A stretch of 64,000 nucleotides of DNA from Gemmatimonas sp. (GTDB taxonomy: Bacteria; Gemmatimonadota; Gemmatimonadetes; Gemmatimonadales; Gemmatimonadaceae): assembly GCA_046590495.1 (NCBI GenBank), contig JBKJTE010000029.1, positions 329 through 64,328 of the forward strand, read 5' to 3'. The notes below the pieces were generated by a model that saw nothing but the letters and a program-made list of their open reading frames with translations, was not told the origin of the DNA and ran no database searches. The translations under genes and the position numbers were made by a program. Below, in pieces: positions 35,765 to 57,563 of the stretch (positions are counted from its first letter, which is position 1; the number at the start of each line of letters is the position of its first letter).

Positions 35765-35770
35765 TGTACG

Positions 35771-37597: not shown

Positions 37598-38481
37598 GCA
37601 CCGTCGCGGGCGATGTCGCGCCGACGGTGCGCATGCGTCGTCGGCTGTTGCCTGCCTTATTGCGGGCGCGACACCCGGACACGCTCGAAGGCACCGATAT
37701 CGCCACGCGCGAAACGGCCCTCCGTGTGGCGATGCGCTCGTTCTTTGTGGTGGTGCTTTTCTGGTGGAGCGCGACCGGCGCGATTTTCGCGCTCGAGCGC
37801 ACACCGGCGACACGCGCACTCGGCTTGGTGGTCGCGAGTGCATTTGCCGTGTGGGGCGCATGGTTGCTCTGGGTGGAACGCGATCGGGAATCTGCGAGCG
37901 CGGCGCGTCGCAGCTTTCTGGGTGCGGCGTTCCTTTGGACGTGGGTGCAGGTCTCGTTCTACGGCGGATGGATTATCGGACCGTCGTGGCTCTCGATATC
38001 GGTACGCTCGGAAGCACCGTCACTGCGGCATGCGCTTGATGCCGTCACGTCGATGCTCTGGTACCAGCTGGCGATGCTGCTGGTGCTGTGGGTTGCCGGG
38101 GTGCTCGTTGCCCGTCGGGCCAATCGCGTTGGTTGGTGGGCGCTGCTCCTTTTTTGGAGTACCCATCAACTCGCGTGCATCAACATCTTTGTCGGCGTGG
38201 AGAATCCGGGGCGCGGATTCTTTCCGGAACCGCTCGTGTTTCTCGAGTCGTACTTTGGTCCGCAGCGAAATTCGTGGCTGATGCCACTGTCGATTGCGCT
38301 GCTGCTCGCCGTCACACTTCGCATGATCGTGCACGCGCTGCGCGACGCAACGCCGATGCGACGTCAGTCGATGATGCTGCTTGCCGTACTGGGATCACTC
38401 GGCGTTCTCGAACTGGGCGTGCTCGCCACGCCGATCAATCTGCAGCTGTGGGAATGGTTTCTGGCGGTGCGAGGCTACTGA
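37594..38481 (+). CDS. puhE: PuhE-like polytopic membrane protein (putative photosynthetic complex assembly protein 2)
   Basis: The GTG start overlaps the bchD stop (GTGA). It is a ~7-TM protein that I recognise as DUF3623/PuhE-like (FWWSATGAIFALE..., LLFWSTHQLA...). The family call is from memory only. Confidence 0.55.
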   Translation: MSTVAGDVAPTVRMRRRLLPALLRARHPDTLEGTDIATRETALRVAMRSFFVVVLFWWSATGAIFALERTPATRALGLVVASAFAVWGAWLLWVERDRESASAARRSFLGAAFLWTWVQVSFYGGWIIGPSWLSISVRSEAPSLRHALDAVTSMLWYQLAMLLVLWVAGVLVARRANRVGWWALLLFWSTHQLACINIFVGVENPGRGFFPEPLVFLESYFGPQRNSWLMPLSIALLLAVTLRMIVHALRDATPMRRQSMMLLAVLGSLGVLELGVLATPINLQLWEWFLAVRGY

Positions 38482-38523
38482 TTCGGTCCTGCACAAGGCC
38501 TGTGGCGAACTGAGAGCCGCGCC

Positions 38524-39768
38524 CTATTCGTAGCGTAGCGCTTCAATCGGATCGAGTCGTGCCGCACGTCGCGCCGGCAGCATTCCAAACACGATGCCGA
38601 TGCCAACTGAGACTACGACTGCGATCAGCGTGAGTCCGACCGGTACCGGCGCATCCACGGCCATCGCCAGCGATGCGACGCGGCCAAGCGCCAGACCAAA
38701 TACGATCCCGATCACGCCGCCGATGCCGGTGAGCGTTGACGCTTCAATCAGAAATTGCAGCAGGATATCGCGTCGAGTTGCGCCGAGTGCTTTGCGTACG
38801 CCGATCTCGCGGGTACGACTGGTGACGGAGACCGTCATGATGGCCATCACGCCGATTCCGCCGACAAGCAATGCGACGGCCGACAGAATAATCATCACGA
38901 GGAAGAACACGCTCGTCAGATTGTTGAACGTGTCGAGTACCTGGTCCTGCGTGATGATGTCGAACGTGTTTCCATCGCTTGGTCGCAGTCGACGCATTTC
39001 GCGCAGTGCCATGATCGCTGCACCTTGTGCGTCCGAGACGCGATACCCATCGCGTGGTTTGACGGGCATCCAGAGTGCGTTCGTGCGATCGATATCGAAT
39101 TGGTGATCGAGCATTTTGAAGGGGACAACGGCGCCGACGCCGGCTCCTGGCGGCGCGAAGATATTGGCCGGTTCCTGCCAAATACCAATCACCTGCGCGG
39201 GGCGCCCGCCGATGCGCACCCATCGGCCGATGGTCTGCTCCCGACCGAAGAGGCGAATGGCCGTGCGTTCTTCCAGCACAACCACCGACGCGCCTGTGGC
39301 CATCTCACTCTTGGTGAACCAGCGACCGACTGAGAGTTCACCGCCCTGAATTTCTGTGAAGCCATCGTCAGCGCCAAAGACTGCCAATGGTTGTGAACGT
39401 ACGCCATCCGACTCGATGCGTGCCAGCGCCTGCCCCCAGAGCGACGCGTACGAAATTTCCGGGAGACGCCGAATCGTTTCCGCCTCGCGCTCGCGAATGT
39501 CGGGTCTGATGCGCACGTCCTTCGGCAGGTTGTCCGGATTCAATGGAACCTGCGAAAACTTCTTCATCACGTAGAATGTCGTGGGGCCCGCGACTTCAAA
39601 CGTGTGATTGATCTGTGCCTGAATGCCCTGAACGATTGCCGCCATCGCCATCACGGTCGCGACACCAATCACGACACCAAGAATGGTCAGCGATGAACGC
39701 AGTTTGTTGGTGCGCAATGCATCGAGTGCAATGCGTACATTCTCCGACAGCGCGCTGGTCGCGAACAT
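38524..39768 (-). CDS. FtsX/MacB-type ABC permease, B-type copy 4 (most divergent; lacks the periplasmic Cys pair)
   Basis: ATG at 39768 (MFATSALSENVRIALDALRTNKLRSSLTILGVVIGV...). Large periplasmic loop, SRTREIGVRKALGA motif, C-terminal LDPIEALRYE. Confidence 0.85.
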   Translation of the reverse strand: MFATSALSENVRIALDALRTNKLRSSLTILGVVIGVATVMAMAAIVQGIQAQINHTFEVAGPTTFYVMKKFSQVPLNPDNLPKDVRIRPDIREREAETIRRLPEISYASLWGQALARIESDGVRSQPLAVFGADDGFTEIQGGELSVGRWFTKSEMATGASVVVLEERTAIRLFGREQTIGRWVRIGGRPAQVIGIWQEPANIFAPPGAGVGAVVPFKMLDHQFDIDRTNALWMPVKPRDGYRVSDAQGAAIMALREMRRLRPSDGNTFDIITQDQVLDTFNNLTSVFFLVMIILSAVALLVGGIGVMAIMTVSVTSRTREIGVRKALGATRRDILLQFLIEASTLTGIGGVIGIVFGLALGRVASLAMAVDAPVPVGLTLIAVVVSVGIGIVFGMLPARRAARLDPIEALRYE

Positions 39769-39781
39769 GTCGAGTCTCCGC

Positions 39782-41026
39782 TCAGGTTTCGGCGCGCATG
39801 GCTGTGATCGGATCGAGTCGGGCGGCGCGTGAAGCAGGATAGACGCCGAACAACACGCCGATACCGGCACCGAGCGTGAGTGCCAGCGCGACGGACCACC
39901 ACGTCACGCGCGCAGGCAGGGGCGAGACCGCGGCAATCGTTGCAGCCAATGCCCAGCCAGACAGCACGCCAAGAATTCCGCCGAGCATTGCGAGCGCGAT
40001 CGCTTCCGCCAGAAACTGTTTGCGCACATCGGCCGACGTCGCGCCCATCGCTTTGCGCAACCCGATTTCATGCGTACGCTCAGTGACCGCCATGAGCATG
40101 ATGTTCATGATCACGATGCCGCCGACGAGCACGCCGATCGCAACGACCGCTGGCACCACCGCGAACAGCACAGCGGTCAACTGATTCCAGAAGTCGACGA
40201 GTGCGTCGGCGGTGCTGATGGTGAAGTTGTTTGCGTCCGACGGCCGGAGCCCGCGTGCGACCCGCATTGCTTCTTCGGCCCGCGCCATCGCGGGCGCAAC
40301 TTCAGCGGCGGTGTTCACCTTGACCGAAACGGTCGTGGTTTGGCGTCGACCGTAAATACCCTCGAACGCGGTGATCGGCATCAACGCAAACCCGTCGAAC
40401 GACTGACCGAGCACGCGTCCTTTCCGGGCGACCACGCCGATCACGGTGAAACGTTGTCCCATTATGCGAACGTCCTTGTCCATGGCGTTCGCGCCATCAA
40501 ACAACGTCGCAGCGACGTCGGCTCCAATCACGATCACGTTGCGCCGATCGCGCACGTCGATTTCACTGAGCGGACGTCCTGACGTGAACCGATAGTCCTG
40601 CACGACCTGATAGTCGCTGGTCACACCGAAGATCTGTACGCTGCCAAGTGTTCGATCACGCCACACAACATCGGCCTGCGGTGTCGGCCACCCCGATTGC
40701 AGACTGATCGCGACGGCGTCTGGAAGCGCGGCGCGCACGGCGTCGGCATCGGCCTCATCGATCTTCGGTCGACGCTCGAGAACGCGGAACTGATCGTCGT
40801 TGAAGAGACCGATGCTGATCGGCGTGCGGCGCACCTGAAAACTGTTCATGCCGATCATCGCGTCGGCAATGTTCTCCTTTACGTACGCATTCATCCCCTG
40901 GATGATTGCGACGACAGCAACAAGGAAACCGACCGAGACGACGATGCCGAGCAGCGTGAACGCCGTGCGCAACGGGTTCACGCGAAGTTGCCTCAGCGCC
41001 AGTCGCAGCACATCGGAAAAGCGCAC
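39782..41026 (-). CDS. FtsX/MacB-type ABC permease, A-type copy 4
   Basis: GTG at 41026 (VRFSDVLRLALRQLRVNPLRTAFTLLGIVVSV...). ERTHEIGLRKAMGA motif, C-terminal LDPITAMRAET. Confidence 0.82.
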   Translation of the reverse strand: MRFSDVLRLALRQLRVNPLRTAFTLLGIVVSVGFLVAVVAIIQGMNAYVKENIADAMIGMNSFQVRRTPISIGLFNDDQFRVLERRPKIDEADADAVRAALPDAVAISLQSGWPTPQADVVWRDRTLGSVQIFGVTSDYQVVQDYRFTSGRPLSEIDVRDRRNVIVIGADVAATLFDGANAMDKDVRIMGQRFTVIGVVARKGRVLGQSFDGFALMPITAFEGIYGRRQTTTVSVKVNTAAEVAPAMARAEEAMRVARGLRPSDANNFTISTADALVDFWNQLTAVLFAVVPAVVAIGVLVGGIVIMNIMLMAVTERTHEIGLRKAMGATSADVRKQFLAEAIALAMLGGILGVLSGWALAATIAAVSPLPARVTWWSVALALTLGAGIGVLFGVYPASRAARLDPITAMRAET

Positions 41027-41039
41027 GTATGGTCTTTCG

Positions 41040-42296
41040 CTATTCGTGTCGGAGTGCTTCGATCGGATCCAGCTGCGATGCGCGCATGGCCGGGAGCATA
41101 CCGAACGCCACGCCGGTGATGGCGCTGGCCACGAGCGCCGTGACGACAATGTTCAGCGGCAGCGTGGCAGGGATCGGGCTGTTGGCGCGAATCGCCCAGG
41201 CAAGCAGCGCGCCGATGACGAGGCCGATGATCGCCCCGATGGACGTCAGCGTGGCCGCCTCGACGAGAAATTGCCAGCGGATGGTGCCTGCGGTCGCGCC
41301 CAGTGCCTTGCGAACGCCGATTTCACGCGTGCGCTCGGTGACCGAGATCATCATGATCGCCACGACCCCGACGCCACCAACGAGCAGCGCCACCGCCGAC
41401 AGCGCCAACCCGACGGCGAAGATCGCGCCGAAGAGTTGGTTGAACGTGTCCATGATGCGATCCTGCTCGACAAGGTAGAAGTCGGCACGGTCGCCGGGTT
41501 TGAGTCCGCGGCGGGCGCGCATCGCCGCCTGCACTTCGTCCATTACTTCGCTCTGCACGGCGTCGCCGTATGGGCGCACCAGTAGGGAAAGTCCCCGCTT
41601 GAAGGCGTCGAGATGGCGCACCGAACTCTGCAACGGAATGATCGCGCGCGGCGTATCGGGACCCTTTCCCTCGAGCGTCTTGAGGAAGCCGGCCTTCGGG
41701 TGATAGATGCCGATCACGGTGAACTGCTGGCCGTTGATCTGCACCTCCTTACCAATCGGTTCGGACTGCCCGAAGAGCTGCGCCTTGAGGGTGTCGTTGA
41801 CCAGAATGACGGGCTGCCCGGCGTCGTGCTCGTTCTTGGTAAAGTTGCGACCGGGGAAGATGTCAGCGGCGTCGACCATCGGCCATTCGCTGCTGTACGC
41901 ATCGTAACCGACATTGTCGATGCGGCTGTTGCGATAGGCGAAGTTGCCCGAGCCCCCAAGCACTCCGATGACGGTCTCGACGCCCGGCACGCGCTTGATC
42001 ATCTCCCACTCCGCGAACGAGATCGCGGGATTGCGCCGGTCAGGACATTTCTCGTCGGTGCCGTCGCAGGCGTTGATGCCGGTGCCTTGGCGCTGCACGA
42101 TGAACGTGGTCGCGCCGATGGCCTGCAGGTCTTGCTGGAAGGACTGTTTGATGCCGTTGACGACGGCACCCATGGCCACCACCACGAATACACCGATGGC
42201 GACGCCGGCGATGGTCAGCGCGGCGCGCACCTTGTTGATGCGGATCGCCTCGAAGGCCATACCGACGCCTTCAAAGATCAGGAGGAGTTTGTTCAC
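41040..42296 (-). CDS. FtsX/MacB-type ABC permease, B-type copy 3
   Basis: GTG at 42296 (VNKLLLIFEGVGMAFEAIRINKVRAALTIAGVAIGVFVVVAMG...). Periplasmic ACDGTDEKC motif, ERTREIGVRKALGA, C-terminal LDPIEALRHE. Confidence 0.85.
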   Translation of the reverse strand: MNKLLLIFEGVGMAFEAIRINKVRAALTIAGVAIGVFVVVAMGAVVNGIKQSFQQDLQAIGATTFIVQRQGTGINACDGTDEKCPDRRNPAISFAEWEMIKRVPGVETVIGVLGGSGNFAYRNSRIDNVGYDAYSSEWPMVDAADIFPGRNFTKNEHDAGQPVILVNDTLKAQLFGQSEPIGKEVQINGQQFTVIGIYHPKAGFLKTLEGKGPDTPRAIIPLQSSVRHLDAFKRGLSLLVRPYGDAVQSEVMDEVQAAMRARRGLKPGDRADFYLVEQDRIMDTFNQLFGAIFAVGLALSAVALLVGGVGVVAIMMISVTERTREIGVRKALGATAGTIRWQFLVEAATLTSIGAIIGLVIGALLAWAIRANSPIPATLPLNIVVTALVASAITGVAFGMLPAMRASQLDPIEALRHE

Positions 42297-42300
42297 GCGA

Positions 42301-43542
42301 CTATTCCTGACGCAGGGCGGTGATGGGATCGAGCTTGGATGCCCGACTGGCTGGATACATACCGGCCGCAATGCCGACGCCAGCGCCAGTGAGAAGTGCG
42401 GCGCCGATGGACCACGGCGCGACCGCTGCCGGAAGCGGTGTGAGGACGGAGATGAGGTACGCCAGCCCGATGCCGAGGGCGATACCGATCGCGGCGCCCA
42501 GCACGCTGAGCGTGGTCGCCTCGACAAGGAATTGCGACAGGATATCGCTCCGCTTCGCGCCGAGTGCTTTGCGGATGCCGATCTCGCGCGTGCGTTCCGC
42601 GACCGCGACCAACATGATGTTCATGATCACCATCGCACCCACGACGAGACTGATCGCGGGCAGCGCCGTTCCGAAAAGCACCAAACGTCCTTTCAACTCG
42701 TTGATGAAGCCGAAGGCGGCGTCCTGCGTGACGAGGCCAAAGTCGTCGGCCTCGCCCGCGCGCAGCCCGCGAATGGAGCGCAGCGCACCGCGCGCCAGTT
42801 CGATTCCCTCGTCGATCTCGGGGCGCGTATTCGCCTGCACGATCAGCGAACCGATATCACCGCGCGGTTTGATGATGCGCCCCATGGGCGACGTGCGCGG
42901 CGCAATGGCGAGCCGGTCCAGCGAGAACCCAAAAACAGAGCCCTGCTTTTCCACGACACCGATCACGGTGAAGGGGATGCCGGCGATGCGCAGTTGGCGT
43001 CCTTCGGCATTGAGCCCCGGAAAGAAATGCTCCGCGACTTCGACACCAATCACGATGACCGGCGACCCTGTTCGCACTTCCTGGTCGGTGAACGCGCGAC
43101 CCGTGGTGATGCCGAACTTCTTGATGGTGAAGTAGTCGGCGTCGGTGGCGACGGTCTGCACCTGCTTCGGGCGCGCACCGGGCGCACTCGCGTAGGTGAA
43201 CGACTCCGAAGTCGCCGCCGACGGCATCGTTGGCGGGAGTGCGGCGCGAACGGCGTCGATATCGGTCATCAGGATGAGCGGACGACGTGACGCCATGCGT
43301 GAATCGGCGCCACGCGGCCCCCCAGGGCCGACGTTATCGAACCGACGGAGCGTAAAGGTATTCGCGGCGATCAGTCTTCCGGCGAAATCTTCTTCCACGT
43401 AGCGCCCCATCCCCTCGACGATCGACACGACGGCGATGAGGAACATCACGCCGATCGTGACCCCGAGGAGGGTGAACGCGCTCTTCAGCTTTTGGACACG
43501 AAGCTGGGACAGGGCAAGGCCGATCGCATCACGAGTCTTCAC
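42301..43542 (-). CDS. FtsX/MacB-type ABC permease, A-type copy 3
   Basis: (GTG start) KTRDAIGLALSQLRVQKLKSAFTLLGVTIGVMFLIAVVSIVEGM..., ERTREIGIRKALGA, LDPITALRQE. Confidence 0.85.
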   Translation of the reverse strand: MKTRDAIGLALSQLRVQKLKSAFTLLGVTIGVMFLIAVVSIVEGMGRYVEEDFAGRLIAANTFTLRRFDNVGPGGPRGADSRMASRRPLILMTDIDAVRAALPPTMPSAATSESFTYASAPGARPKQVQTVATDADYFTIKKFGITTGRAFTDQEVRTGSPVIVIGVEVAEHFFPGLNAEGRQLRIAGIPFTVIGVVEKQGSVFGFSLDRLAIAPRTSPMGRIIKPRGDIGSLIVQANTRPEIDEGIELARGALRSIRGLRAGEADDFGLVTQDAAFGFINELKGRLVLFGTALPAISLVVGAMVIMNIMLVAVAERTREIGIRKALGAKRSDILSQFLVEATTLSVLGAAIGIALGIGLAYLISVLTPLPAAVAPWSIGAALLTGAGVGIAAGMYPASRASKLDPITALRQE

Positions 43543-43606
43543 CTCTCAACAATAACGCCCCGCGCTCCAGCGCACCGTCTCAACATGCCCCACGCGCACC
43601 GTTCAA

Positions 43607-44872
43607 CTACTCGTGGCGCAGCGCCTCGATCGGGTCCAGGCGCGAGGCTCGAAGGGCCGGGGCCGTGCCAAACACCACGCCTGTCAGAATGCTGGCGCCC
43701 AAGGCCATGAAGATGGCCGACGCGGGAATGGACGTCGGCACCGGCGTGTAGGTGCGGACGGCCCACGCCAGCATGCTCCCGATGATCAGCCCAACCGACG
43801 CGCCGATCGACGTCAGTGTCGCGGCTTCGACCAGAAACTGCCAGAGGATTGTGGCTCGAGTCGCGCCCAGCGCTTTACGCACCCCGATTTCGCGAGTTCG
43901 CTCGGTTACAGAGATCATCATGATCGCGACGACGCCAACACCGCCCACCATCAGCCCGACGCCTGAAAGCGCGAGGCCGACCAGGAAGATCGCGCCAAAG
44001 AGCTGGTTGAAGGTGTCGAGCATGCGGTCTTGCGCGACGATGGCAAAGTTGCTGGGCTGACCGGGCTTGAGCCCACGGGCGCCGCGCAACAGCTCCGTCA
44101 CACCGTCCATCACGGCCGCCTGATTCGCGCCGTCACGCGGCTTTACCATGAGCATCAGCCCGCGCCGCCAGACGTCGAGATGACGGTAGGCAGTCATCAT
44201 CGGGAGAATCGCGCGCGGCTTGTCGGGGCCTCGGCCGTCCATCGTCTTGAGAAAACCGGCCTTCGTGTGAAAGACGCCGATGACTTTGAACTGCTTTCCC
44301 TCGACGGAAATCAGCTTGCCGATGGGATCAGAGTCGCCGAAGAGTCGATTCTTGAGCGTGTCGTTCACCAGCGCGACCTGCGCGCCTGCATCATGCTCGG
44401 CGCTCGAAAAACTGCGGCCGGGCGAGATGTCGGCAACGTCGGTCTGAATCCAGTCGGTGCTTTGCGCGTCGTAGCCGACGTTCTTGAGCTCGTGACCGCG
44501 GTATTCGACCGTCGTCTCGCCCGACAGCCACGCGGTCGCCGTTTGCACGGTCGGCTGGCGCCGGATTGCTTGCCATTCGCCGAGTGTAATCGCCGGATTC
44601 TTGCGATCCGGACAGGTGTCATCGGTGCCATCGCAATTGCCGAGACTCACCCCGCGGCGGCGGACCTGAAAGGCAGTCGCACCAAACTCGTCGAGGTCGG
44701 CCTGAAAGCTCTGTCGAATGCCATTTACGGTCGCGCCCATCGCCACCACAACGAAGACGCCAATCGCGACACCGGCGATGGTGAGCGACGCACGCACTTT
44801 GTTGGCGCGCATCGCATCAAGCGCCATCCCCATCCCTTCCAGCGCCATGAAGACGCGATCGATCAGTCGCAT
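43607..44872 (-). CDS. FtsX/MacB-type ABC permease, B-type copy 2
   Basis: ATG at 44872 (MRLIDRVFMALEGMGMALDAMRANKVRASLTIAGVAIGVFVVVAMG...). Periplasmic NCDGTDDTC motif, C-terminal LDPIEALRHE. Confidence 0.85.
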   Translation of the reverse strand: MRLIDRVFMALEGMGMALDAMRANKVRASLTIAGVAIGVFVVVAMGATVNGIRQSFQADLDEFGATAFQVRRRGVSLGNCDGTDDTCPDRKNPAITLGEWQAIRRQPTVQTATAWLSGETTVEYRGHELKNVGYDAQSTDWIQTDVADISPGRSFSSAEHDAGAQVALVNDTLKNRLFGDSDPIGKLISVEGKQFKVIGVFHTKAGFLKTMDGRGPDKPRAILPMMTAYRHLDVWRRGLMLMVKPRDGANQAAVMDGVTELLRGARGLKPGQPSNFAIVAQDRMLDTFNQLFGAIFLVGLALSGVGLMVGGVGVVAIMMISVTERTREIGVRKALGATRATILWQFLVEAATLTSIGASVGLIIGSMLAWAVRTYTPVPTSIPASAIFMALGASILTGVVFGTAPALRASRLDPIEALRHE

Positions 44873-44876
44873 GCCG

Positions 44877-46112
44877 CTATTCCTGACGGAGAGCCGCGAT
44901 GGGATCGAGGCGCGCGGCGCGGCTCGCGGGATAGATACCGGCAACAATACCGACGCCGGCGCCCACGGTCAGCGCGGCCAGAATGGACCACGGCGCAACG
45001 GCAGCAGGTAGCGGCGTCGTCGCGGCTATGATGGCGGCGAGACCGATACCGAGCGCAATACCGAGCGCGGCACCGACGACACTGAGCGTTGCCGATTCGA
45101 CAAGGAACTGCGAAAGGATGTCGCGGCGCCGTGCGCCGAGTGCTTTGCGCACGCCGATTTCACGCGTGCGTTCTGCGACGGCCACGAGCATGATGTTCAT
45201 GATCACCATCGCACCAACGACAAGCCCGATCGCGGGCAGCGCTGTGCCGAAGATGACCATCTTCGATTTGATGTCGTCGAAGAAGGCCATCGCTTCGTCC
45301 TGCGTTTCGAGCGCAAAGTTATCGGCTTTACGAGGCGGCAGCTTCCGCGCAGCTCGAAGGACTTCACGTGCCACGTCGATCCCGTCTGTGACAAGCAGCG
45401 CCGTCGGCGCCTGCACAACCATCGTCTCGATGTCGCCAGCCGGCATGATCGCGCGTTGCAGTGGACTTGTGTACGGGGCGATCGCCATCCGGTCGAGTGA
45501 GAAGCCGAATACGGTGCCTTGCTTCTCGATGATGCCTATCACCTCGTACGGAACGCCATTGATGCGCAACTCGCGGCCTATCGGATCGAGTCCCCTGAAG
45601 AAATGCTCGGCGACTTCGACTCCGATCACGACCACTGTCGAACCTGCGTTCACCTCCTGCGCGCCGAACGCTCGTCCGCGTTCGACGTTGAACTTCTTGA
45701 TCGTGAAGTAGTCCGCTTCAGTCGCGATCGCCTGCACCTGCCTCGGCCGATTGAACTGCGACGTTGCATTGATGAAGCTCTCGCTGGTGATCGCCGAGCG
45801 CGATCCCTGTGGCAACACACTTCGCACCAGTGCAGCATCGTTGGCGAACAGGCGCGGGCGACGCTGAATTTCACGCCAGTCGACGTTGTCGTCGTCGCTG
45901 AAGTTGTTCCAGCGGCGCAGCGTGAACGTGTTCACGCCAAAGAGCTTGCCGGCAAAATCGTTCTCGACGTAATTGCTCATCCCCTGCACGATCGACACGA
46001 CGGCAATCAGAAACATCACACCGATCGTCACACCGATCAGCGTGAAAAAGCTCTTGAGCTTCTGCACGCGAATGGTGTTGAGCGCCAGTCGAACGGCTTC
46101 GAGGAAAGGCAT
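44877..46112 (-). CDS. FtsX/MacB-type ABC permease, A-type copy 2
   Basis: MPFLEAVRLALNTIRVQKLKSFFTLIGVTIGVMFLIAVVSIVQGM..., ERTREIGVRKALGA, LDPIAALRQE. Confidence 0.87.
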   Translation of the reverse strand: MPFLEAVRLALNTIRVQKLKSFFTLIGVTIGVMFLIAVVSIVQGMSNYVENDFAGKLFGVNTFTLRRWNNFSDDDNVDWREIQRRPRLFANDAALVRSVLPQGSRSAITSESFINATSQFNRPRQVQAIATEADYFTIKKFNVERGRAFGAQEVNAGSTVVVIGVEVAEHFFRGLDPIGRELRINGVPYEVIGIIEKQGTVFGFSLDRMAIAPYTSPLQRAIMPAGDIETMVVQAPTALLVTDGIDVAREVLRAARKLPPRKADNFALETQDEAMAFFDDIKSKMVIFGTALPAIGLVVGAMVIMNIMLVAVAERTREIGVRKALGARRRDILSQFLVESATLSVVGAALGIALGIGLAAIIAATTPLPAAVAPWSILAALTVGAGVGIVAGIYPASRAARLDPIAALRQE

Positions 46113-46124
46113 CAGCTCGACCGG

Positions 46125-47378
46125 TTATTCGTAGCGGAGGGCGTCGACAGGATCGAGGCGTGAGGCGCGGCTCGCGGGCAGCAGACCAAACAGAATCCCA
46201 GTCACGCAGCTCGCCCCCAGTGCCGCGACAACCGCGAGTGGCGGGATGGATGCTTCGACGGGGGTGAAGCTCCGAATGAGCAGCGCACCGAGCCAGCCGA
46301 CCGAGAGACCGATCGCGCCGCCGATACCGGTGAGGGTGGCTGCTTCTACAAGGAATTGCCATAGAATGGTCGCCCGTGTCGCGCCGAGTGCTTTGCGCAC
46401 TCCGATTTCGCGCGTGCGCTCGGTTACGGAGATCATCATGATCGCCACCACGCCCACGCCACCGACGATCAGCCCGACTGCCGAGAGTGCGATCATCACG
46501 AGAAAGAACATGCCAAAGATTTTGTCGTACGTTTCCATCAGCTTGTCCTGCGTGATGATCGCGAACGACGACTCATCGTTGGGGCGCAGCCCGCGCTGAC
46601 CCCGCAGTGACGCGGTGACATCGTCGACGGCCTGATCGCGCGTGACGTTTTCGCGCGGCTTGATGGCGAGCGCGATGTTACTGGACCGCGCCCCGACGTA
46701 GCGGATCAAGGCGTTCACAGGCACAACAGCTTTGGGACGCTCGCCGCCGGAAAGAAAGCTCGCGTTGTCTTTGTAGACCCCGATCACTTCGAACGGAACA
46801 CCGTTCATGGTGATCATCTTGCCGATGGGATCGAGCTCGTCGAAGAGGCGCTCCTTCATCAGCGTCGAGATCACGGCAACACGCGCACCGGTACGCGCTT
46901 CAGCCGTAGTGAACGCGCGCCCCGGGAATATTTCCGGGGCACTGATAGCGGTCCATTCGGCGGAGTATCCCTCGAGTGGCGCCGACGAGAGGTTGCGTTC
47001 GCGGAACTTCACGGACGCACTCCAGTCGAGACGCGAACCGACGGTCTCGAGCGTCGACAGGCGTTGCAGCGCCTCGATCTCTGCTGGACGGATCGGCGGA
47101 TTGCGTAGCCAACGACACGTATCGTCCGAGCCGTCGCAATTCTCAAAGCTGATGGGATAGCGCGAGACGAAAAAGGTTGTTGGACCCGTGCTCGCGAAAT
47201 CCTTGGCAACGGACTCGTTGATCCCGTGCACGGCCGCCGACATCTCAACGACAACGAACACTCCGACCGCGATACCAAGAATCGTCAGCCCGGCGCGAAC
47301 GCGGTTGGCGCGGATCGCATCGAGTGCAATACGAACGCCTTCACCTACCGCTGAGAGTCGAGTGGAAAAAGCGGTCAT
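46125..47378 (-). CDS. FtsX/MacB-type ABC permease, B-type copy 1
   Basis: MTAFSTRLSAVGEGVRIALDAIRANRVRAGLTILGIAVGVFVVVEMS..., periplasmic NCDGSDDTC, LDPVDALRYE. Confidence 0.87.
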   Translation of the reverse strand: MTAFSTRLSAVGEGVRIALDAIRANRVRAGLTILGIAVGVFVVVEMSAAVHGINESVAKDFASTGPTTFFVSRYPISFENCDGSDDTCRWLRNPPIRPAEIEALQRLSTLETVGSRLDWSASVKFRERNLSSAPLEGYSAEWTAISAPEIFPGRAFTTAEARTGARVAVISTLMKERLFDELDPIGKMITMNGVPFEVIGVYKDNASFLSGGERPKAVVPVNALIRYVGARSSNIALAIKPRENVTRDQAVDDVTASLRGQRGLRPNDESSFAIITQDKLMETYDKIFGMFFLVMIALSAVGLIVGGVGVVAIMMISVTERTREIGVRKALGATRATILWQFLVEAATLTGIGGAIGLSVGWLGALLIRSFTPVEASIPPLAVVAALGASCVTGILFGLLPASRASRLDPVDALRYE

Positions 47379-47381
47379 CGA

Positions 47382-48629
47382 CTACTCCTGACGCAACGCG
47401 GTGATAGGATCGAGGCGCGACGCACGACTCGCGGGATAGACGCCGGCGACGATGCCAACGCCGGCACCGAGCAGCACACCGACCACGATCGACCAGGGCG
47501 CCACACTCGCGGGCAGCGGAGACACGGCGGCAATCAACTTCGCCAACCCGATACCCAGCGCCACGCCGACGGCGGAACCAACCGTGCCGAGCGTTGAGGC
47601 TTCGATGAGAAACTGCGACAGGATGTCGCGACGACGTGCGCCGAGGGCTTTGCGGATGCCGATCTCACGCGTGCGTTCAGAGACGGCGACGAGCATGATG
47701 TTCATGATCACGATCGAACCGACGACCAGACCGATCGCCGGCAGCGCGATACCGGCGAGCACGAGATAGCGTTTGATCTTGTTCCAGAACTCGAGCGCGG
47801 AGTCTGCAGTCTGGAGCGAGAAGTCATCCTTTTGCGCGGGGCGCAAGCGATGCAATCCACGCATCGTCGCACGGACGTTCTCCATCGTTTCCTTCATCGC
47901 CGCTTCACTCGGCGACTGCACCATGACCGCATCGACGATATTCGGGCGCGAATTCAACAGTCGGCGCGCCTGTGAGTGCCAGGGAGCGACCATGAAGTTG
48001 TCGAACGACATACCGAGGGCGCTCCCCTGTGGTTCGGCGATACCGATGACCTGGTACGGCACCCCGCCCAGTTTTACTTCACGCCCGATCGGATCGAGCG
48101 ACGGGAACAGACGCTTCGCTGCATCGACACCGATGACGACGACCTTTTCGCCGCGTTGCAGCTCCTGTGGCGTCATGATGCGTCCCTGTGTCACGCCAAG
48201 TTTCTTCATCTCGAAGTACGCGCCGTCGATCGCAGTCACGCGTACGCTGCGTGGTTTGCCACCTGTCGCCGTTGAAACCTGGACATTGTCCTCGCTCGTG
48301 ATTGCCCACTTCACGTCGTCAGGCAGCGCCTTCACGACCGGTGGCACTTCACTGATATCGAGGCGCGGACGACGACGGAATTCTTCCCACGTCGCTTCAT
48401 CCATATCGCCCATGTTGATGTTGGGACGATTGCGCAATTCGAACGTATTGACGCCGATCAACTTGCCGACGAGATCGTCTTCCATGTAGCGCCCCATCCC
48501 CTCGACGATCGAGACGACGGAGATGAGAAACATGACGCCGATGCAGACGCCGAGCAGCGTGAACGCGCTCTTGAGCTTTTGCGTGATGATGGTGCGTAGC
48601 GCCAGCCGGATGGCGTCGAATAATGGCAT
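47382..48629 (-). CDS. FtsX/MacB-type ABC permease, A-type copy 1
   Basis: ATG at 48629 (MPLFDAIRLALRTIITQKLKSAFTLLGVCIGVMFLISVVSIVEGM...). ERTREIGIRKALGA, LDPITALRQE. Confidence 0.87.
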   Translation of the reverse strand: MPLFDAIRLALRTIITQKLKSAFTLLGVCIGVMFLISVVSIVEGMGRYMEDDLVGKLIGVNTFELRNRPNINMGDMDEATWEEFRRRPRLDISEVPPVVKALPDDVKWAITSEDNVQVSTATGGKPRSVRVTAIDGAYFEMKKLGVTQGRIMTPQELQRGEKVVVIGVDAAKRLFPSLDPIGREVKLGGVPYQVIGIAEPQGSALGMSFDNFMVAPWHSQARRLLNSRPNIVDAVMVQSPSEAAMKETMENVRATMRGLHRLRPAQKDDFSLQTADSALEFWNKIKRYLVLAGIALPAIGLVVGSIVIMNIMLVAVSERTREIGIRKALGARRRDILSQFLIEASTLGTVGSAVGVALGIGLAKLIAAVSPLPASVAPWSIVVGVLLGAGVGIVAGVYPASRASRLDPITALRQE

Positions 48630-48738
48630 GCGGTGGCCTCGCGGCGCGTAAGGGTCTGCGAGGAGATACGGGCCGCCGGGGCGAGAGTTTCGCCCGCGGT
48701 GATCTCGTGTGCTCCCGCACAGTGGATATCCCGAACGC

Positions 48739-48770
48739 ACACGAGGCGCTCACATGTGAGCGCCTCGTGT
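48739..48770. repeat. Perfect 32-nt palindrome in the 181-nt gap between the ABC ATPase gene and the first permease gene
   Basis: ACACGAGGCGCTCACA|TGTGAGCGCCTCGTGT gives 16/16 complementary positions, checked base by base. An A7/T7 run lies 13 nt away (48784-48790). Confidence 0.9.
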
Positions 48771-48810
48771 CGGTCCTTCACACAAAAAAAGGTGGCGCCT
48801 TTAAGAATGG

Positions 48811-49620
48811 TCAGCGCTGCGGCATCGGAAGTCCCACTTTCTCCGCAAACTGCTCGCGGCGTTCGTCACTTGAGATCACGCCGTCACGCAGCACGATGAC
48901 ACGACGGGCGTGCGCCGCAATGTCCGGTTCGTGTGTCACCATGACGACCGTCTGCCCGTTGCGCGCGAGTTCTTCAAAGACGCGCATGATTTCTTCGGAC
49001 GTCTGCGAGTCGAGGTTGCCGGTCGGTTCGTCCGCGAGCAGAATGGACGGGCGATTGACCAAGGCACGCGCGATGGCGACACGCTGGCGCTGGCCGCCGG
49101 AGAGTTCGTTCGGACGGTGTCCCATGCGCTCACCGAGTTGTACCCGGTCGAGTGCTTCGGATGCGCGCGCTTTGCGTTCGCTGGCGGAAACTCCGGCGTA
49201 AACGAGAGGCAGTTCCACGTTCTGTAGCGCCGACGCGCGAGGCAGCAAGTTGAACGTCTGGAAGACGAAGCCGATTTCCTTGTTACGAACGCGTGCGAGC
49301 TGGTCGTCGGACATCGTGCTGACCAGCATGCCGTTGAGCCAATACTCGCCTTCGTTTGGCGTATCGAGGCAGCCGATGAGATTCATCAGCGTCGACTTGC
49401 CCGAGCCTGACGGACCCATGATCGCCACGTACTCATTGCGGCGGATGGCGAGATCGACGCCGCGAAGCGCGCGCACGATTTCACCACCCATGTCGTACTG
49501 CCGTTTGAGTCCGCGCGTGACAATGACCCAGTCATTGTCCGGGGTAGCGCCTGGAACGCTGAGAACAGCGCGACGTTCGCCGGTGGTGCTTAGGCCAATG
49601 TCGTCAAGCGTATCGGTCAT
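48811..49620 (-). CDS. ABC transporter ATP-binding protein (MacB-NBD / LolD-like, stand-alone)
   Basis: Walker [10 protein letters not shown], signature [15 protein letters not shown], Walker [17 protein letters not shown] overlap with the adaptor gene stop. Confidence 0.93.
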
Positions 49621-50909
49621 GATTTCTTTGCCGGTGCCGGAGTCTTCTTCTCGTCTGGCTTTGCGACCTTGATCAGCGCGCCGTCCTTCAACTCACGGAT
49701 TGCCTGGTAGGTGCCCGCCACGATGTTGTCGCCGGCCTTGAGTCCATCAAGCACTTCGAAGTGCCGCTCGCCGGCGATCCCCACCTTTACGGGGCGGAAG
49801 GTCACTTTGTTGTCCGTCCCGACCACGAAGACTCCCTCGACGTCGCGCTTGCCGACTTCCTTTGCCGGCTGCCCACGGCCCACGGTCACAGCTGTGTCCG
49901 CGTTCGGGAGCTTCTCGTTCTCACGAACGGTCAGCGCTATGATCGGAATCGACAGCGCGTTCTTGCGATTCGCCGTCACGATCTTGGCCGTCGCGGAGAA
50001 GTCGGGGCGGGTTTCCTTGGGCGGGTTCAGCAACTGCACGCGGACTTCGTAATCGATCGCCTGATCGCTCGTAGCCGTGGTGCTGCCGCTTTTAGCGACG
50101 GAGCTGTTGGAGATTTCAATCACCCGGCCGATGAACGTCGTGTCGGGGAAGGCGTCGATCTGGATGATGGCCGAATCGCCGACGCTGATGCGTGCGACAT
50201 CGGTCTCATCAACCTTGACCTTCGTTTCGAGCACACTCATGTCGCTGATGGTGAGGAGCGTCGCCGCGTCCTTGTTCAGCGTACCCATGATCGCCGTTTC
50301 GCCTTCTTCGACGACGAGGCGCGTGATTTTGCCGCTCATCGGCGCGATGATCCTTGTGCGCGTGAGCGCCTGTCGCGCGTCGCGGACGGATGCGACCGCC
50401 TGTACGACGCCAAACTGTGCCGCTTCGGCGAGCGCCTTGCTCACTTCCGTCTGCGTCTTGAGCTGTTCGAGCTGCTCTTCCGAAACGCCGAGCGCCGCCG
50501 ATGACTTGAGCGCGACCTGACGCTCGTAGTTTTTCTGCGCCTGGATCAAGTTGGCGCGCGACTGCGCTTCCTGAGCCCTCGTTGAAGCGAGGCCGGCTTC
50601 GGCGCGCTGGAGAGCGGCCTGCACCTGCTCGGGGTCGATCTGGAGCAGGAACTGCCCCTTCTTGACGATGTCGCCTTCCTTCACCGCAAGGCGCACGATC
50701 TTGCCGGTGACGTCCGCGGACACGTTGACCTTTACGCGGGGCTGAATCTGTCCGCTCGCCGTGACTGATGCGACCAAGTCACGCGACTCCACCTTTTCAG
50801 TGCGCACTTCGACAGGCTTGGACTTGTTCTTCTGGTTGCTGACGTAGGCCAGGGCTGCAACGGCGATAACGATCACGCCGCCAATCCCGAACTTAACGGT
50901 CCTGGTCAT
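49617..50909 (-). CDS. Periplasmic adaptor (membrane fusion protein, MacA/HlyD family)
   Basis: N-terminal TM anchor, a lipoyl / alpha-hairpin (coiled-coil-rich AQ..LE repeats) / beta-barrel layout, and its position between the OMP and the ATPase. Confidence 0.88.
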
Positions 50910-50921
50910 GAATTCTTCCGG

Positions 50922-52445
50922 TTAGCGAAGGGGGCGGCCGACCGCGGCTTCCAACGCGGTGAACGCCCGTTGTACTTCGTAAACTGCATTGATGCGATCG
51001 GTTTCTGCCTTTTCGAAATCACCACGCGCCTGCACGAGTTCAACGAGACTGATCGCGCCGACCCGATACCGCTCCTGCGCCAACGACAGCACCGTACGCG
51101 CCGTCGCGACGTTCTGCTCCTGCAAGGCCACCGTCTGCTGCGACGTCGTCAACGACAGGTACGCGGCGGTGACATCGGCCGTGACCTTGAGTTCTTGCGT
51201 CCGGAGACTGTTGGCTGCATCCCGTTGCTGCACGGTCGCTGATTCAACCTGCTGCTCGCGACGGAACCCGTTGAAGATCGGCAGCGACAAGGATGCGTTC
51301 AGGCTGTACGGATTGCGGGTGAAAGCGAACGGATATTTCCCCTGCGAATCGCGGATGGCCTGTTCCTGCGCCGGTGTAAACGCGATCGACTGACACTGCG
51401 ACAAGTTGTTCGTGAGATTGAGTGCGGCGCGCACTTCTTCGGAACGAATGCAACTGGCCTTCGACGCGGACGACCCCAGCTTTCCACTCGTGAGCAGCTG
51501 CTGTGTGTCGGTGTAGCGATTGGTGAAGGCGGAGAGGCTGGCCGAGAGTGCGAGCGACGGAAAATAGCTCCCCTTGGCCGACGCAACGGCACGCTTTGAC
51601 CCTTCTTCACGCAAGCGAAGTCCTTCAAGCTGCGGATTCGACTTGCGGGCCATGTCGAGAATGGACTGCAGCTCAACGGTCGGCGTGGCCGCGAGATTCG
51701 GATCGAGGCGGAGGCCCGGTTGTGCGGTGACACCGACCTGCTGCACGAGTCGCACGATTTCAATCGCGGCCAGATTGCGCGCGTTCAGCGCGGCAACGCG
51801 CTGCTGTCCGTCGGCCACTTCGGCGCGCTGCACATCGAGCTGCGTCCCCGAGCCGACCTGCAGTCGGGCGCGTGCCAGTTGCAACTGCGCTGTCGTGGTG
51901 GTGACGAGCGTGTCCTGCAACGAAGCGCGGGCCTGCGCCTGCAGTGCTGCCAGATACTGTGACGTGATGTCAGTGCGAAGGCGCTGATCAGCGGCCGTGA
52001 TGTCGGCTTCGGCCGCATTCTGATTGAACCTCGCCTGACGACGATCGTTGATCGCGCCAACCGAAATGTTCATTTGCGCAGATGCGCTGACATCCGTCGA
52101 GAGCTGGTCGTTGGTGGCGCCGAACGCCTGCCCCTGGAAGAACGTCTGACGTCCTTCGCGGTAGCCGGCGCCCAGGTTGGTGTTCACGCTTGGCAGCAGG
52201 GCACCGTTTGCCGCGCGCATGACCGCAGCAGCGGACCGACGGGCGTTGGTTGCCGTTGCAAAGCCGGGATTGTTGCGGCGAGCAAGAGCGATCGCGTCGG
52301 CGAGAGTCAGCACCGATCCCGGCGCCGGCGCGGTGGTCGCTGGGGTCTGTGCGGACAGCGTGGGCGCGAATAACGCTCCACTGGCCGAAGCCAGAGCGAG
52401 CATGAGTGCAGAGATACGCATGTAGTGGAGTCGTGAGGAGGTCAT
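50922..52445 (-). CDS. TolC-family outer-membrane efflux protein
   Basis: Signal peptide (MTSSRLHYMRISALMLALASASGALFAPTLSAQ) followed by LTLADAIALARRNNPGF and two repeated TolC helix/beta halves. ATG at 52445 was chosen; the upstream part of track ORF 50922..52697 is discarded. Confidence 0.88.
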   Translation of the reverse strand: MTSSRLHYMRISALMLALASASGALFAPTLSAQTPATTAPAPGSVLTLADAIALARRNNPGFATATNARRSAAAVMRAANGALLPSVNTNLGAGYREGRQTFFQGQAFGATNDQLSTDVSASAQMNISVGAINDRRQARFNQNAAEADITAADQRLRTDITSQYLAALQAQARASLQDTLVTTTTAQLQLARARLQVGSGTQLDVQRAEVADGQQRVAALNARNLAAIEIVRLVQQVGVTAQPGLRLDPNLAATPTVELQSILDMARKSNPQLEGLRLREEGSKRAVASAKGSYFPSLALSASLSAFTNRYTDTQQLLTSGKLGSSASKASCIRSEEVRAALNLTNNLSQCQSIAFTPAQEQAIRDSQGKYPFAFTRNPYSLNASLSLPIFNGFRREQQVESATVQQRDAANSLRTQELKVTADVTAAYLSLTTSQQTVALQEQNVATARTVLSLAQERYRVGAISLVELVQARGDFEKAETDRINAVYEVQRAFTALEAAVGRPLR

Positions 52446-52530
52446 TGGCAGGGGGCCGTACGGGCGCCTCGCCGACGGGGTTTCAGACGCCGAGTCGTCG
52501 TATACGACGAGCGGGAATGTATCAATGCGG

Positions 52531-53289
52531 TCATCGTGGAACGTCGTCGCGCACCGCATCGATCCCACGCGCCGGAAGCAGCACGCGAAGCAGTCGACCG
52601 TCGGCGTCCGCCCAGATCGTGCGCGAATCGCCGCTGGTGAGCACCACGCGCCAACGCCACGCGGCCCGACGCGCGCCGGCGATGACGACGGTGTCACGCT
52701 GGGTTTCGAGGATGAGGCGAACGCTTCCCTGGCGGTTCTCGCCGGGAGTCAGTGTCGGGATGGCCTGCGTGACGCCTACCTCGGCGTGCCGACCGCGCAC
52801 GAGCAGCGCGTATTGCAGCAGACCGTCGTCTTCGAGGATGATGGCGCCCGGACTCAGGAGATACTCGCGCGCCGCCTCGCCCGTGACGCCCCGTGCAAGC
52901 GTCGCAAACCGCCCGCGAAGCCGCTGGCCGCCTAAACGACGGGTGATGTCGGCGCCGCGCCGCTCTTCGAGCGAGTAGCGCACCGGGGTTCCGGCTGAAT
53001 CGGTTTCGAGGCGCATCGCCGTGCGCTGTTCACCACTCGCCGATTCGGCACGCAGTTCGAATACGGCGCCGTCCTGCGATACGATCCGACGGATCGAGAA
53101 CTGTTCGCGGCCGGTCCGCTGCGCGCCGACAAAAAGCGTAAAACTCCCGACGTCAAGTCGCTCCACCTGCTCACGCTCGGCGGGGCCGTGGCTCACGCTG
53201 GCCGGAGAACGCTCAGGGGTTCGGGCCGAACCGCGCGACGCCACGACGAGTAGGGCGAGCGCCAGCGAGGCGAGACGGATCGAAGGCAT
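52531..53289 (-). CDS. Secreted hypothetical protein
   Basis: ATG at 53289 with a signal-peptide-like N-terminus (MPSIRLASLALALLVVASRGSA). No family recognised. Same strand as the efflux operon and upstream of it. Confidence 0.5.
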   Translation of the reverse strand: MPSIRLASLALALLVVASRGSARTPERSPASVSHGPAEREQVERLDVGSFTLFVGAQRTGREQFSIRRIVSQDGAVFELRAESASGEQRTAMRLETDSAGTPVRYSLEERRGADITRRLGGQRLRGRFATLARGVTGEAAREYLLSPGAIILEDDGLLQYALLVRGRHAEVGVTQAIPTLTPGENRQGSVRLILETQRDTVVIAGARRAAWRWRVVLTSGDSRTIWADADGRLLRVLLPARGIDAVRDDVPR

Positions 53290-53318
53290 CAACCGAAGAT
53301 AGCCGGTCCCCCTTCGCC

Positions 53319-57464: not shown

Positions 57465-57563
57465 GTACGTACGTTTGCTCCCCGCAGAGCACCGGTCACA
57501 CCAGACCGGGCTGTGCCGATTTACGCCACAGGTGTAGCGACGTTCGGGGCGTTACTCTTCAGC

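Follow-up and report, generated by a model that had tools for sequence, protein, structure and literature searches.

Can eight permease genes be served by one ATPase, one periplasmic adaptor and one outer-membrane channel? This question is raised by an operon of Gemmatimonas sp. lying in a 64,000-nucleotide (nt) stretch of contig JBKJTE010000029.1 (assembly GCA_046590495.1; positions 329 to 64,328), which was analysed as a whole, is hereafter called the window and supplies the numbering used throughout. Eleven open reading frames (ORFs) without internal stop codons follow one another on the minus strand from 52445 to 38524, and encode in this order a TolC-like outer-membrane factor (OMF), a MacA-like adaptor, a stand-alone ATP-binding cassette (ABC) ATPase, here called the nucleotide-binding domain (NBD), and eight permeases of 411–421 amino acids (aa), P1 to P8 (see the table). 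On balance, we regard it as probable that the permeases act as heterodimeric MacB-type modules, each made up of one A-type and one B-type subunit, and that four such modules are co-expressed and use the same ATPase, adaptor and channel.

The eight permeases fall into two subtypes, A (P1, P3, P5 and P7) and B (P2, P4, P6 and P8), with pairwise identities of 40–65% among the A-types and 37–63% among the B-types, as against 30–34% between A and B. Along the operon the subtypes alternate, ABABABAB being one of the 70 possible orders of four A and four B genes, and the successive gaps measure 3, 4, 4 and 13 nt within the pairs and 12, 64 and 13 nt between them. An earlier note on this DNA, made from the sequence letters, had described eight tandem permease genes with strict alternation of two subtypes; their positions and gap sizes match exactly, and the alternation is borne out both by the pairwise identities and by the gene order.

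All eight permeases are recognised by the profiles MacB_PCD (107–125 bits; gathering cutoff 27) and FtsX (73–90 bits; cutoff 25.5), and align over their full length with MacB structures. Hydropathy analysis predicts one transmembrane (TM) helix, a periplasmic loop of about 240 aa and three further TM helices in seven of them, and for P8 it yields six peaks spread over the same TM1 and C-terminal regions. The coupling helix between TM2 and TM3 carries the motif ERTREIG[VI]RKALGA in all eight proteins, and among 283 relatives ERTREIG.RKALGA is at least 95% conserved in both subtypes. Divergence is concentrated in the periplasmic domain, where identity is 38% for A against A, 35% for B against B and 24% for A against B; the corresponding values are 61%, 56% and 34% in the N-terminus and TM1, and 66%, 64% and 48% in TM2–4. 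The claim made earlier that the TM and ERTREIG regions are conserved while the periplasmic loops have diverged is thus confirmed within both subtypes (64–66% in TM2–4 against 35–38% in the loop).

Among proteins of solved structure, the closest relatives of both A and B are the MacB proteins of E. coli, A. actinomycetemcomitans and A. baumannii, with E-values of about 1e-43 to 1e-47; P1, for example, aligns end to end with the membrane part of E. coli MacB in 5NIK (E = 1.6e-43), as P2 does with E = 7e-47. The fourth-best structural relative is the pneumococcal Spr0695 (5XU1_M; E = 1e-32 to 1e-40), while LolC structures are matched by A with E = 1e-9 and by B not at all. Judged by these sequence comparisons, both subtypes belong to the MacB clade and not to LolCE. 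The NBD has as its top NCBIfam match the NBD part of MacB (264 bits over positions 7–232 of 648), with LolD and DarD next in rank, and its Walker A, Q-loop, LSGGQ signature, Walker B and H-loop motifs are all intact. The adaptor shows the Pfam domains HlyD_D23, Biotin_lipoyl_2 and HlyD_3, passes the model TIGR01730 RND_mfp (156 bits; cutoff 94.9), and matches the MacA model PRK11578 with E = 1e-44, yet stays under the cutoff of that model. The locus had at first been read as a LolCDE-style heterodimeric permease combined with MacAB-TolC-style export; of this description the architecture stands (two permeases, a separate NBD, an adaptor and a channel), and the family does not, both subtypes being assigned to the MacB clade.

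At the level of named families, none of the permeases reaches the cutoffs for MacB, LolCE, ADOP, DevC or FtsX. On the MacB equivalog NF007826, whose cutoff is 966 bits, the permeases score 144–188 bits and the NBD 264. Several other assignments were tried and rejected, namely LolCDE (31–63 bits vs a cutoff of 362 on TIGR02212, and at most 52 vs 439–540 on the LolC/LolE exception models), ADOP (99–141 bits vs 622 on TIGR03434, with one half of the model matched at E = 1e-28 to 1e-41), DevBCA (DevC at most 25 bits vs 290; the NBD on DevA 197 vs 296) and, likewise on score, the FtsX family.

To see how this gene order is distributed, an A-type alignment was scanned over one genome per species, and every ORF in the resulting 80 loci was classified with hidden Markov models (HMMs) built from the A, B, ATPase, adaptor and TolC proteins of the window, the gene calls being taken from ORF lists and Pfam. 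The survey is skewed towards genomes with a P7-like gene, since P7 served as the confirming query. Nearly all of the loci are from Gemmatimonadales, and eight are from Acidobacteriota. Where both ends of an operon were present, the gene order was TolC-MacA-NBD-(A-B)n, with one pair in 11 operons, two pairs in 16, three pairs in 11 and four pairs in a single one (L007; L numbers are our labels for loci). Outside the scan, an exact-protein look-up added four-pair arrays in L084/L085, L086, L087 and L088, beside the window itself. Gemmatimonas groenlandica, a cultured phototroph with a complete genome (CP053085.1), has the same four pairs followed by DUF3623-bchD-bchI, and the array of G. aurantiaca comprises three pairs orthologous to P1–P6. 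Pair number thus varies from one to four among related genomes, a point on which the earlier note had called for a survey, and the TolC-like gene takes the first position in all Gemmatimonas loci inspected. We take TolC-MacA-NBD-(A-B)n, as reconstructed from these gene orders, to be an ancient architecture general in Gemmatimonadales and not a quirk of one genome. Some of the related loci also contain ADOP-like long ORFs. In one metagenome-assembled genome (MAG) pair 2 is separated from the terminal pair by an inserted gene for a major facilitator superfamily transporter (L003, 12572–13762).

The single ATPase, adaptor and channel behind the array, as first described, are found both in the window and in about 40 related operons, each array having one NBD, one adaptor and one OMF. 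In the surveyed arrays more than one ATPase gene was never seen, and an HMM scan of all ORFs of at least 120 aa in the window revealed no second ABC ATPase of the NBD kind. The ATPase gene is absent from the Gemmatimonadales operons L048, L053 and L075 and from all eight Acidobacteriota loci, as far as the retrieved loci extend (at most 10 kb on each side). Within the same limits, P7/P8-like pairs occur as orphans with no adaptor, ATPase or TolC gene in L021 (9157–11651) and L043 (9665–12506), the former in the same MAG as the full operon L020. The operons lacking an NBD gene and the orphan pairs suggest that permeases of this family work naturally with an ATPase whose gene lies at another site. 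In L062 (6723–8714) a single ORF runs without a stop codon through both the ATPase and the first A-type permease, owing either to a gene fusion or to an error in long-read assembly.

The pairing of A and B is equally persistent. The permease adjacencies in the related loci comprise 127 of the type A-to-B and 59 of the type B-to-A, with three each of A–A and B–B, and a lone A or a lone B is found only at contig ends. Wherever neighbours could be assigned at 60% identity or more, an A-type gene is followed by a B-type gene of the matching clade (62 of 62 cases). In most loci the gaps are 1–7 nt within pairs and 3–116 nt between them. In pairs 1–3 a Shine-Dalgarno-like AGGAG or AGGAA lies in the last codons of the A gene, just before the B start; the start codon of P2, for instance, stands 3 nt past the P1 stop, with AGGAG within the final P1 codons. 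Such short junctions within pairs suggest coupled translation. A-B-B triplets were observed in Palauibacter and one Acidobacteriota genome (L074, L078 and L083).

Residues that distinguish the subtypes point to the same partnership. The alignments (141 A and 142 B sequences) contain just five columns that are fixed to at least 90% within each subtype and yet differ between A and B, and all of them lie in TM1 or TM2 (F23/L, L35/V, V307/G, I308/V and N310/A in P1 numbering). In MacB, TM1 and TM2 of both protomers build a four-helix bundle at the dimer interface (PMC5985334). TM2 of the homodimeric E. coli MacB reads GGIGVMNIM and so has both the Gly-Val of the B-type and the Asn of the A-type; the A-type has the Asn without the Gly, whereas the B-type has the Gly without the Asn. 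This complementary loss fits an obligate partnership of A and B, and the pattern is that expected if a symmetric interface had been split into two complementary halves. Given that A and B are almost never apart and that the diagnostic columns fall in TM1 and TM2, an A/B heterodimer is the favoured candidate for the membrane unit. A cysteine pair adds a further asymmetry between the partners: residues 81 and 88 of P2 (about 47114–47138) belong to a motif, CDG[ST]D[DE].C, in the periplasmic domain, which is present also in P4 and P6 and in 35% of the 142 B-type sequences, and absent from P8, while no position of the A-type alignment reaches 30% cysteine. These two cysteines are likely to form a disulfide.

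Neighbour-joining trees of the same A and B sequences, with 60 bootstraps each, were used to reconstruct how the array arose. The A tree unites P1, P3 and P5 (100%), P3 and P5 being sisters, and places P7 in a separate clade of 57 sequences (100% bootstrap). The B tree groups P4 with P6 as sisters (100%), joined by P2, and gives P8 a clade of its own with 52 sequences (100% bootstrap). The alternating A and B clades are thus resolved, and the two trees are congruent, reading (P1,(P3,P5)) with P7 apart and (P2,(P4,P6)) with P8 apart, with 100% on the key clades. This congruence argues that the A/B pair is the duplicated unit, as the earlier note had proposed, and the matching-clade adjacency agrees with it. 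Tree topology and adjacency together suggest that the P7/P8 lineage, usually the last pair, split off first from the proximal lineage, and that the latter was duplicated later, once or twice, within Gemmatimonadaceae. On this phylogeny pair 4 represents the oldest lineage and not the newest. Orthologues of P3 are found throughout Gemmatimonadaceae, including Gemmatimonas (72–94% identity), and those of P7 across Gemmatimonadales (56–89%).

Selection acting on the individual copies was estimated against the closest four-pair relative, L084, whose proteins are 89–96% identical. The ratio of nonsynonymous to synonymous substitution rates (dN/dS) is 0.028–0.072 for the eight permeases, and 0.030, 0.057 and 0.060 for the NBD, MacA and TolC, respectively; dS in this comparison is 0.7–1.4, near saturation, with the direction of the result still clear. 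All eight permease genes are under strong purifying selection, and none of them is a pseudogene, a possibility contemplated at the outset (dN/dS 0.03–0.07, intact ORFs); we take every copy to be in use.

Expression was assessed from published RNA-seq tables of G. phototrophica AP64 (PMC9862903, Dataset S2), using the operon GEMMAAP_RS06705 to RS06670 (NZ_CP011454.1, 1605124–1615128), which was matched to the window by gene order and gene sizes only and not by sequence. In these tables the genes for TolC (RS06705), adaptor (RS06700) and ATPase (RS06695) have log counts per million (log_cpm) of 8.8, 8.4 and 7.8, and permeases 1 to 5 (RS06690, RS06685, RS06680, RS06675 and RS06670) have 7.9, 7.1, 6.7, 7.0 and 7.8 (PMC9862903). 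At least five permease genes are therefore expressed along with TolC, adaptor and ATPase, at log_cpm 6.7–8.8, and permeases 1–4 vary across conditions in step with the ATPase and the adaptor. Permease 5, whose gene comes after a gap of 57 nt, exceeds permeases 3 and 4 in abundance and is less responsive. This hints at a sub-operon boundary that corresponds in position to the P4–P5 gap of the window (43543–43606) and may reflect an internal start or a change in stability. The idea of an "interchangeable" substrate-specificity cassette, with which the earlier note had summed up the locus, appears overstated in this light, as the pairs are 12–64 nt apart and seemingly co-expressed, which suggests modules working in parallel rather than alternatives between which the cell switches.

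Together these observations lead us to propose a MacAB-TolC-type tripartite ABC efflux machine in which MacB has been split and diversified. In its membrane part, a four-helix permease of type A would be joined to another of type B, both with a MacB-like periplasmic domain, and the four paralogous A/B pairs, which lie in tandem, would be transcribed together. Two copies of the single ATPase would attach to each heterodimer via the coupling helix, which is the same in both subtypes, so that one ATPase could serve all eight permeases, and every heterodimer would sit beneath a common hexameric MacA-like adaptor and TolC-like channel. ATP-driven mechanotransmission would then squeeze the periplasmic domains, and substrates from the periplasm or the outer leaflet would leave through the channel. 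Since the pairs differ mainly in their periplasmic domains, which enclose the substrate in MacB, the array would broaden the substrate range of one ATPase/adaptor/channel set. Likely substrates are amphipathic peptides, lipopeptides and glycolipids, and possibly porphyrins. More tentatively, and with less than even confidence, we suggest that Gemmatimonadales and some Acidobacteriota may in general use one ATPase/adaptor/channel platform for up to four heterodimeric modules, as well as for orphan pairs encoded elsewhere.

Several points weigh against this proposal. In G. phototrophica the mRNA of the ATPase and of the adaptor, per kb, amounts to about 1.5–4 times that of each single permease, whereas in an A.B.NBD2 complex topped by a MacA hexamer the ATPase and adaptor copies would have to outnumber the permease copies by far; with so low an excess, the pairs may compete for the common parts and not all be completely assembled at one time, or other ATPases may help. 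The periplasmic domain also evolves fastest between orthologues, so its divergence among paralogues is by itself no proof of specialisation. Further, paralogues of the same subtype hardly differ in TM1 and TM2, which makes the interface subtype-specific rather than pair-specific, so that non-cognate A/B combinations may occur.

This last point leads to the alternative of combinatorial mixing, in which any A pairs with any B to give up to 16 membrane modules instead of four. The dimer-interface helices TM1 and TM2 are indeed nearly identical within a subtype across the four paralogues, the diagnostic residues are common to all A or all B sequences, and the genes of the array appear to be co-expressed in G. 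phototrophica, as seen for at least five permeases. However, pairs duplicate and persist as units, as the matching-clade adjacency of 62/62 attests, the junctions of 1–7 nt within pairs suggest not only coupled translation but co-assembly, and the periplasmic domains, which also touch each other in MacB, are here just 35–38% identical between paralogues. We consider free mixing unlikely, though it deserves to be kept in mind.

The age of the P7/P8 lineage bears on another alternative, a division of labour in which some pairs, most likely P7/P8, act without the channel; they might pass extracted lipids or lipoproteins to a carrier in the periplasm, or control an enzyme located there, like LolCDE and FtsEX. 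P7 and P8 form a separate old clade, their relatives occur as orphan pairs distant from adaptor and TolC genes (L021 and L043), the pair has been lost from the operon of G. aurantiaca, the locus opens with a conserved gene for a secreted, beta-barrel-like protein, and type VII ABC members independent of a channel are well known (PMC5985334). Yet in most genomes P7/P8 lies within the TolC-MacA-NBD operon, L048 consists of TolC-MacA followed by only one pair, of the P7/P8 type, all eight permeases score as MacB-like and not as LolCE- or FtsX-like, and the beta-barrel protein resembles known folds only weakly. A role apart from the channel, whether in extraction or in regulation, thus seems to us quite unlikely for any of the pairs.

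That the operon would instead encode eight homodimeric pumps, the A/B alternation being a mere relic of duplication, is suggested by precedent: the characterised MacB-clade transporters (MacB, Spr0694–0695, YknYZ; reviews of the field) are all homodimeric, and every ATPase-coupling motif is kept in both subtypes of the array. A relic, however, would be expected to decay, whereas the alternation holds in more than 180 adjacencies and two phyla; A and B never stand alone save at contig ends, and the Asn and Gly of TM2 have been lost in complementary fashion. We find this reading very improbable. Simple redundancy or dosage, with equivalent copies kept for expression level or robustness, would suit pairs that lie co-expressed in one operon but is scarcely credible for paralogues that are old (37–65% identity), each with orthologues of its own (56–94% identity across genera) and each under strong purifying selection, as redundant copies would be lost or homogenised.

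The arrangement that we favour, with A/B heterodimers on one ATPase, adaptor and channel, appears to be undescribed, though it is built entirely from familiar parts. No description of heterodimeric MacB-type tripartite pumps or of tandem MacB permease arrays was found in open-access papers and preprints, and in the same literature no paper on these genes was found for Gemmatimonadota. The E. coli MacAB-TolC system (5NIK, 5LIL and 5GKO) is alike in TM1, the Porter/Sabre-type periplasmic domain, TM2–4 and the coupling-helix motif, and in its MacA-type adaptor and TolC-type channel, which the window encodes in one operon. It differs in that MacB is a homodimer with the ATPase fused at the N-terminus and encoded by one gene, whereas the window has a separate ATPase gene and two non-equivalent permease subtypes in four paralogous pairs. 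LolCDE likewise combines two different type VII permeases with a separate ATPase dimer (C.E.D2); here the likeness is one of architecture only, and LolCDE passes lipoproteins to LolA and has neither adaptor nor TolC, whereas the operon of the window encodes both. No LolA gene was seen in the 64-kb window. Reviews of the field name LolCE as the sole heterodimeric type VII system.

Separate ATPase and permease genes next to a MacA-like adaptor are also found in Spr0693-0694-0695 of S. pneumoniae (5XU1), YknXYZ of Bacillus and DevBCA-HgdD of cyanobacteria, but each of these has a single permease gene and a homodimeric membrane part, with no A/B subtypes or arrays. YbbP of the E. coli YbbAP system and the ADOP proteins of Acidobacteria contain two unlike MacB-type halves and use a separate, often distant ATPase; in them, however, the halves are joined by linking helices in a single polypeptide of about 800 aa, whereas those of the window are separate genes for 411–421 aa. 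Outside the type VII family, the resistance-nodulation-division (RND) pump MdtABC (MdtB2C) is a tripartite system whose inner-membrane part combines two different paralogous subunits, with adjacent genes and one adaptor; it differs from the present case in being driven by proton-motive force and not an ABC system, and in forming a single heteromer without an array. The sharing of an energiser has been proven experimentally for group II energy-coupling factor (ECF) transporters and for MsiK of sugar importers, in which one ATP-hydrolysing module serves several substrate-specific membrane components. These are importers of unrelated fold without a periplasm-spanning adaptor or channel, and the sharing that we propose for the window is inferred.

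Table. Coordinates of the operon genes, the intercistronic spacer and the genes upstream, in window numbering
Feature	Coordinates	Strand	Size	Remarks
Histidine kinase	53319..57464	+	1381 aa	HAMP, PAS, HisKA, HATPase_c; divergent from the operon
Secreted all-beta protein (DUF6134/DUF3108-like)	52531..53292	-	253 aa	directly upstream of the TolC gene
TolC-like outer-membrane factor	50922..52445	-	507 aa	signal peptide, two OEP repeats; Pfam OEP PF02321 E = 1.4e-48
MacA-like periplasmic adaptor	49617..50909	-	430 aa	one N-terminal TM helix, residues 5-23
Stand-alone ABC ATPase (NBD)	48811..49620	-	269 aa	4-nt overlap with adaptor gene; ABC_tran E = 3e-34
NBD-P1 spacer	48630..48810	-	181 nt	two conserved hairpins; spacer of G. 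aurantiaca 24 nt, without the element
P1, A-type permease, pair 1	47382..48629	-	415 aa	MacB_PCD and FtsX; dN/dS 0.034
P2, B-type permease, pair 1	46125..47378	-	417 aa	periplasmic Cys pair; dN/dS 0.028
P3, A-type permease, pair 2	44877..46112	-	411 aa	dN/dS 0.033
P4, B-type permease, pair 2	43607..44872	-	421 aa	dN/dS 0.072
P5, A-type permease, pair 3	42301..43542	-	413 aa	dN/dS 0.044; preceded by the longest gap of the array, 64 nt
P6, B-type permease, pair 3	41040..42296	-	418 aa	dN/dS 0.045
P7, A-type permease, pair 4	39782..41026	-	414 aa	dN/dS 0.028; lineage of the usually terminal pair
P8, B-type permease, pair 4	38524..39768	-	414 aa	without Cys pair; dN/dS 0.038

The spacer that separates the common parts from the permeases contains a perfect 14-bp hairpin at 48770..48739, a palindrome unique in the window, and a second hairpin, CCUCGC...GCGAGG, at 48663..48637, the 3' arm of which, GCGAGG, is likely to be the ribosome-binding site (Shine-Dalgarno) of P1. 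The folding z-score of the spacer is -4.4, and both hairpins are kept in L084, L086 and L087 with a few compensatory changes. No Rfam family matched the spacer, nor was there any real match in the region 38000–53500. The spacer may act between the cistrons in processing, stabilisation or translation control, and so make expression of the permeases independent of that of the common parts. A scan for sigma-70 promoters gave 0 sites vs 2.7 expected, and one for terminators gave 14 vs 11.5 expected, all within genes, both scans being uninformative for this phylum.

At the head of the locus, the gene for the secreted protein lies between the histidine kinase and TolC genes in every Gemmatimonas locus inspected. 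Its family has 301 matches, all in Gemmatimonadota; the match to DUF6134 is faint, and one homologue is named DUF3108. The AlphaFold2 model (pLDDT 88.5) is all-beta, and its fold matches in the PDB are all weak (DUF1849 6NTR, DUF1089 2H1T, VioE 2ZF3 and the YmcC-like 3FZX). This protein might be an accessory periplasmic partner of the pump. The recognised domains of the divergently transcribed histidine kinase occupy its last 400 residues, leaving about 980 N-terminal residues without an assigned domain, and a kinase of 1029–1389 aa is found at the same position in L001, L003 and L084–L088. No response-regulator gene adjoins it; the gene that follows (57513–59333) encodes a Ser/Thr kinase. We consider the histidine kinase a candidate regulator of the operon.

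On the other side, positions 1–38481 of the window are taken up by a complete-looking photosynthesis gene cluster (ppsR-like, bchN/B/H, acsF-like, pucC, pufC/M/L, bchZ/Y/X/C, crtF-like, bchI/D and DUF3623, the last puhE-like), whose edge lies 42 nt beyond the stop codon of P8 (38481/38524). The same junction is present in G. groenlandica, while the non-phototrophic four-pair relatives have at this point protoglobin-methyl-accepting chemotaxis protein genes (L086 and L088) or hemF/PIG-L (L084). The difference in genes at this junction indicates that the efflux operon marks one boundary of the site where the cluster was inserted. The P3 identities within Gemmatimonas, and the agreement with G. 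groenlandica in both the four pairs and the genes that follow them, assign the DNA of the window to a G. groenlandica-like phototrophic Gemmatimonas. In several genomes tetrapyrrole genes are found just past the array, here those for Mg-chelatase (bchI and bchD, 34721–37597) and in G. aurantiaca those for uroporphyrinogen decarboxylase and coproporphyrinogen oxidase (hemE and hemF, L001 18755–20775), and E. coli MacAB-TolC has been suggested to export protoporphyrin (PMC5985334). Since the neighbours vary among close relatives, the adjacency is probably a coincidence.

All MacB-type examples solved so far are symmetric homodimers, and the recognition of substrates in the periplasm is poorly understood. 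The array offers a natural experiment on this question, in that four diverged pairs of periplasmic domains are set on near-identical TM and coupling parts with a common ATPase, adaptor and channel, and swapping of pairs should alter specificity and nothing else. Cultured carriers are at hand in G. groenlandica TET16 and G. aurantiaca T-27, identified by sequence, and G. phototrophica AP64, identified by annotation. In the annotation of hundreds of genomes from soil and freshwater, the genes now carry no more than the label "ABC transporter permease", and surveys of resistomes count A/B permease genes as macB matches. If our proposal is true, the system would give tripartite pumps their first heterodimeric type VII ABC exporter, asymmetric mechanotransmission would extend beyond LolCDE, and the array would provide the first exporter counterpart of the shared-energiser principle of the ECF importers.

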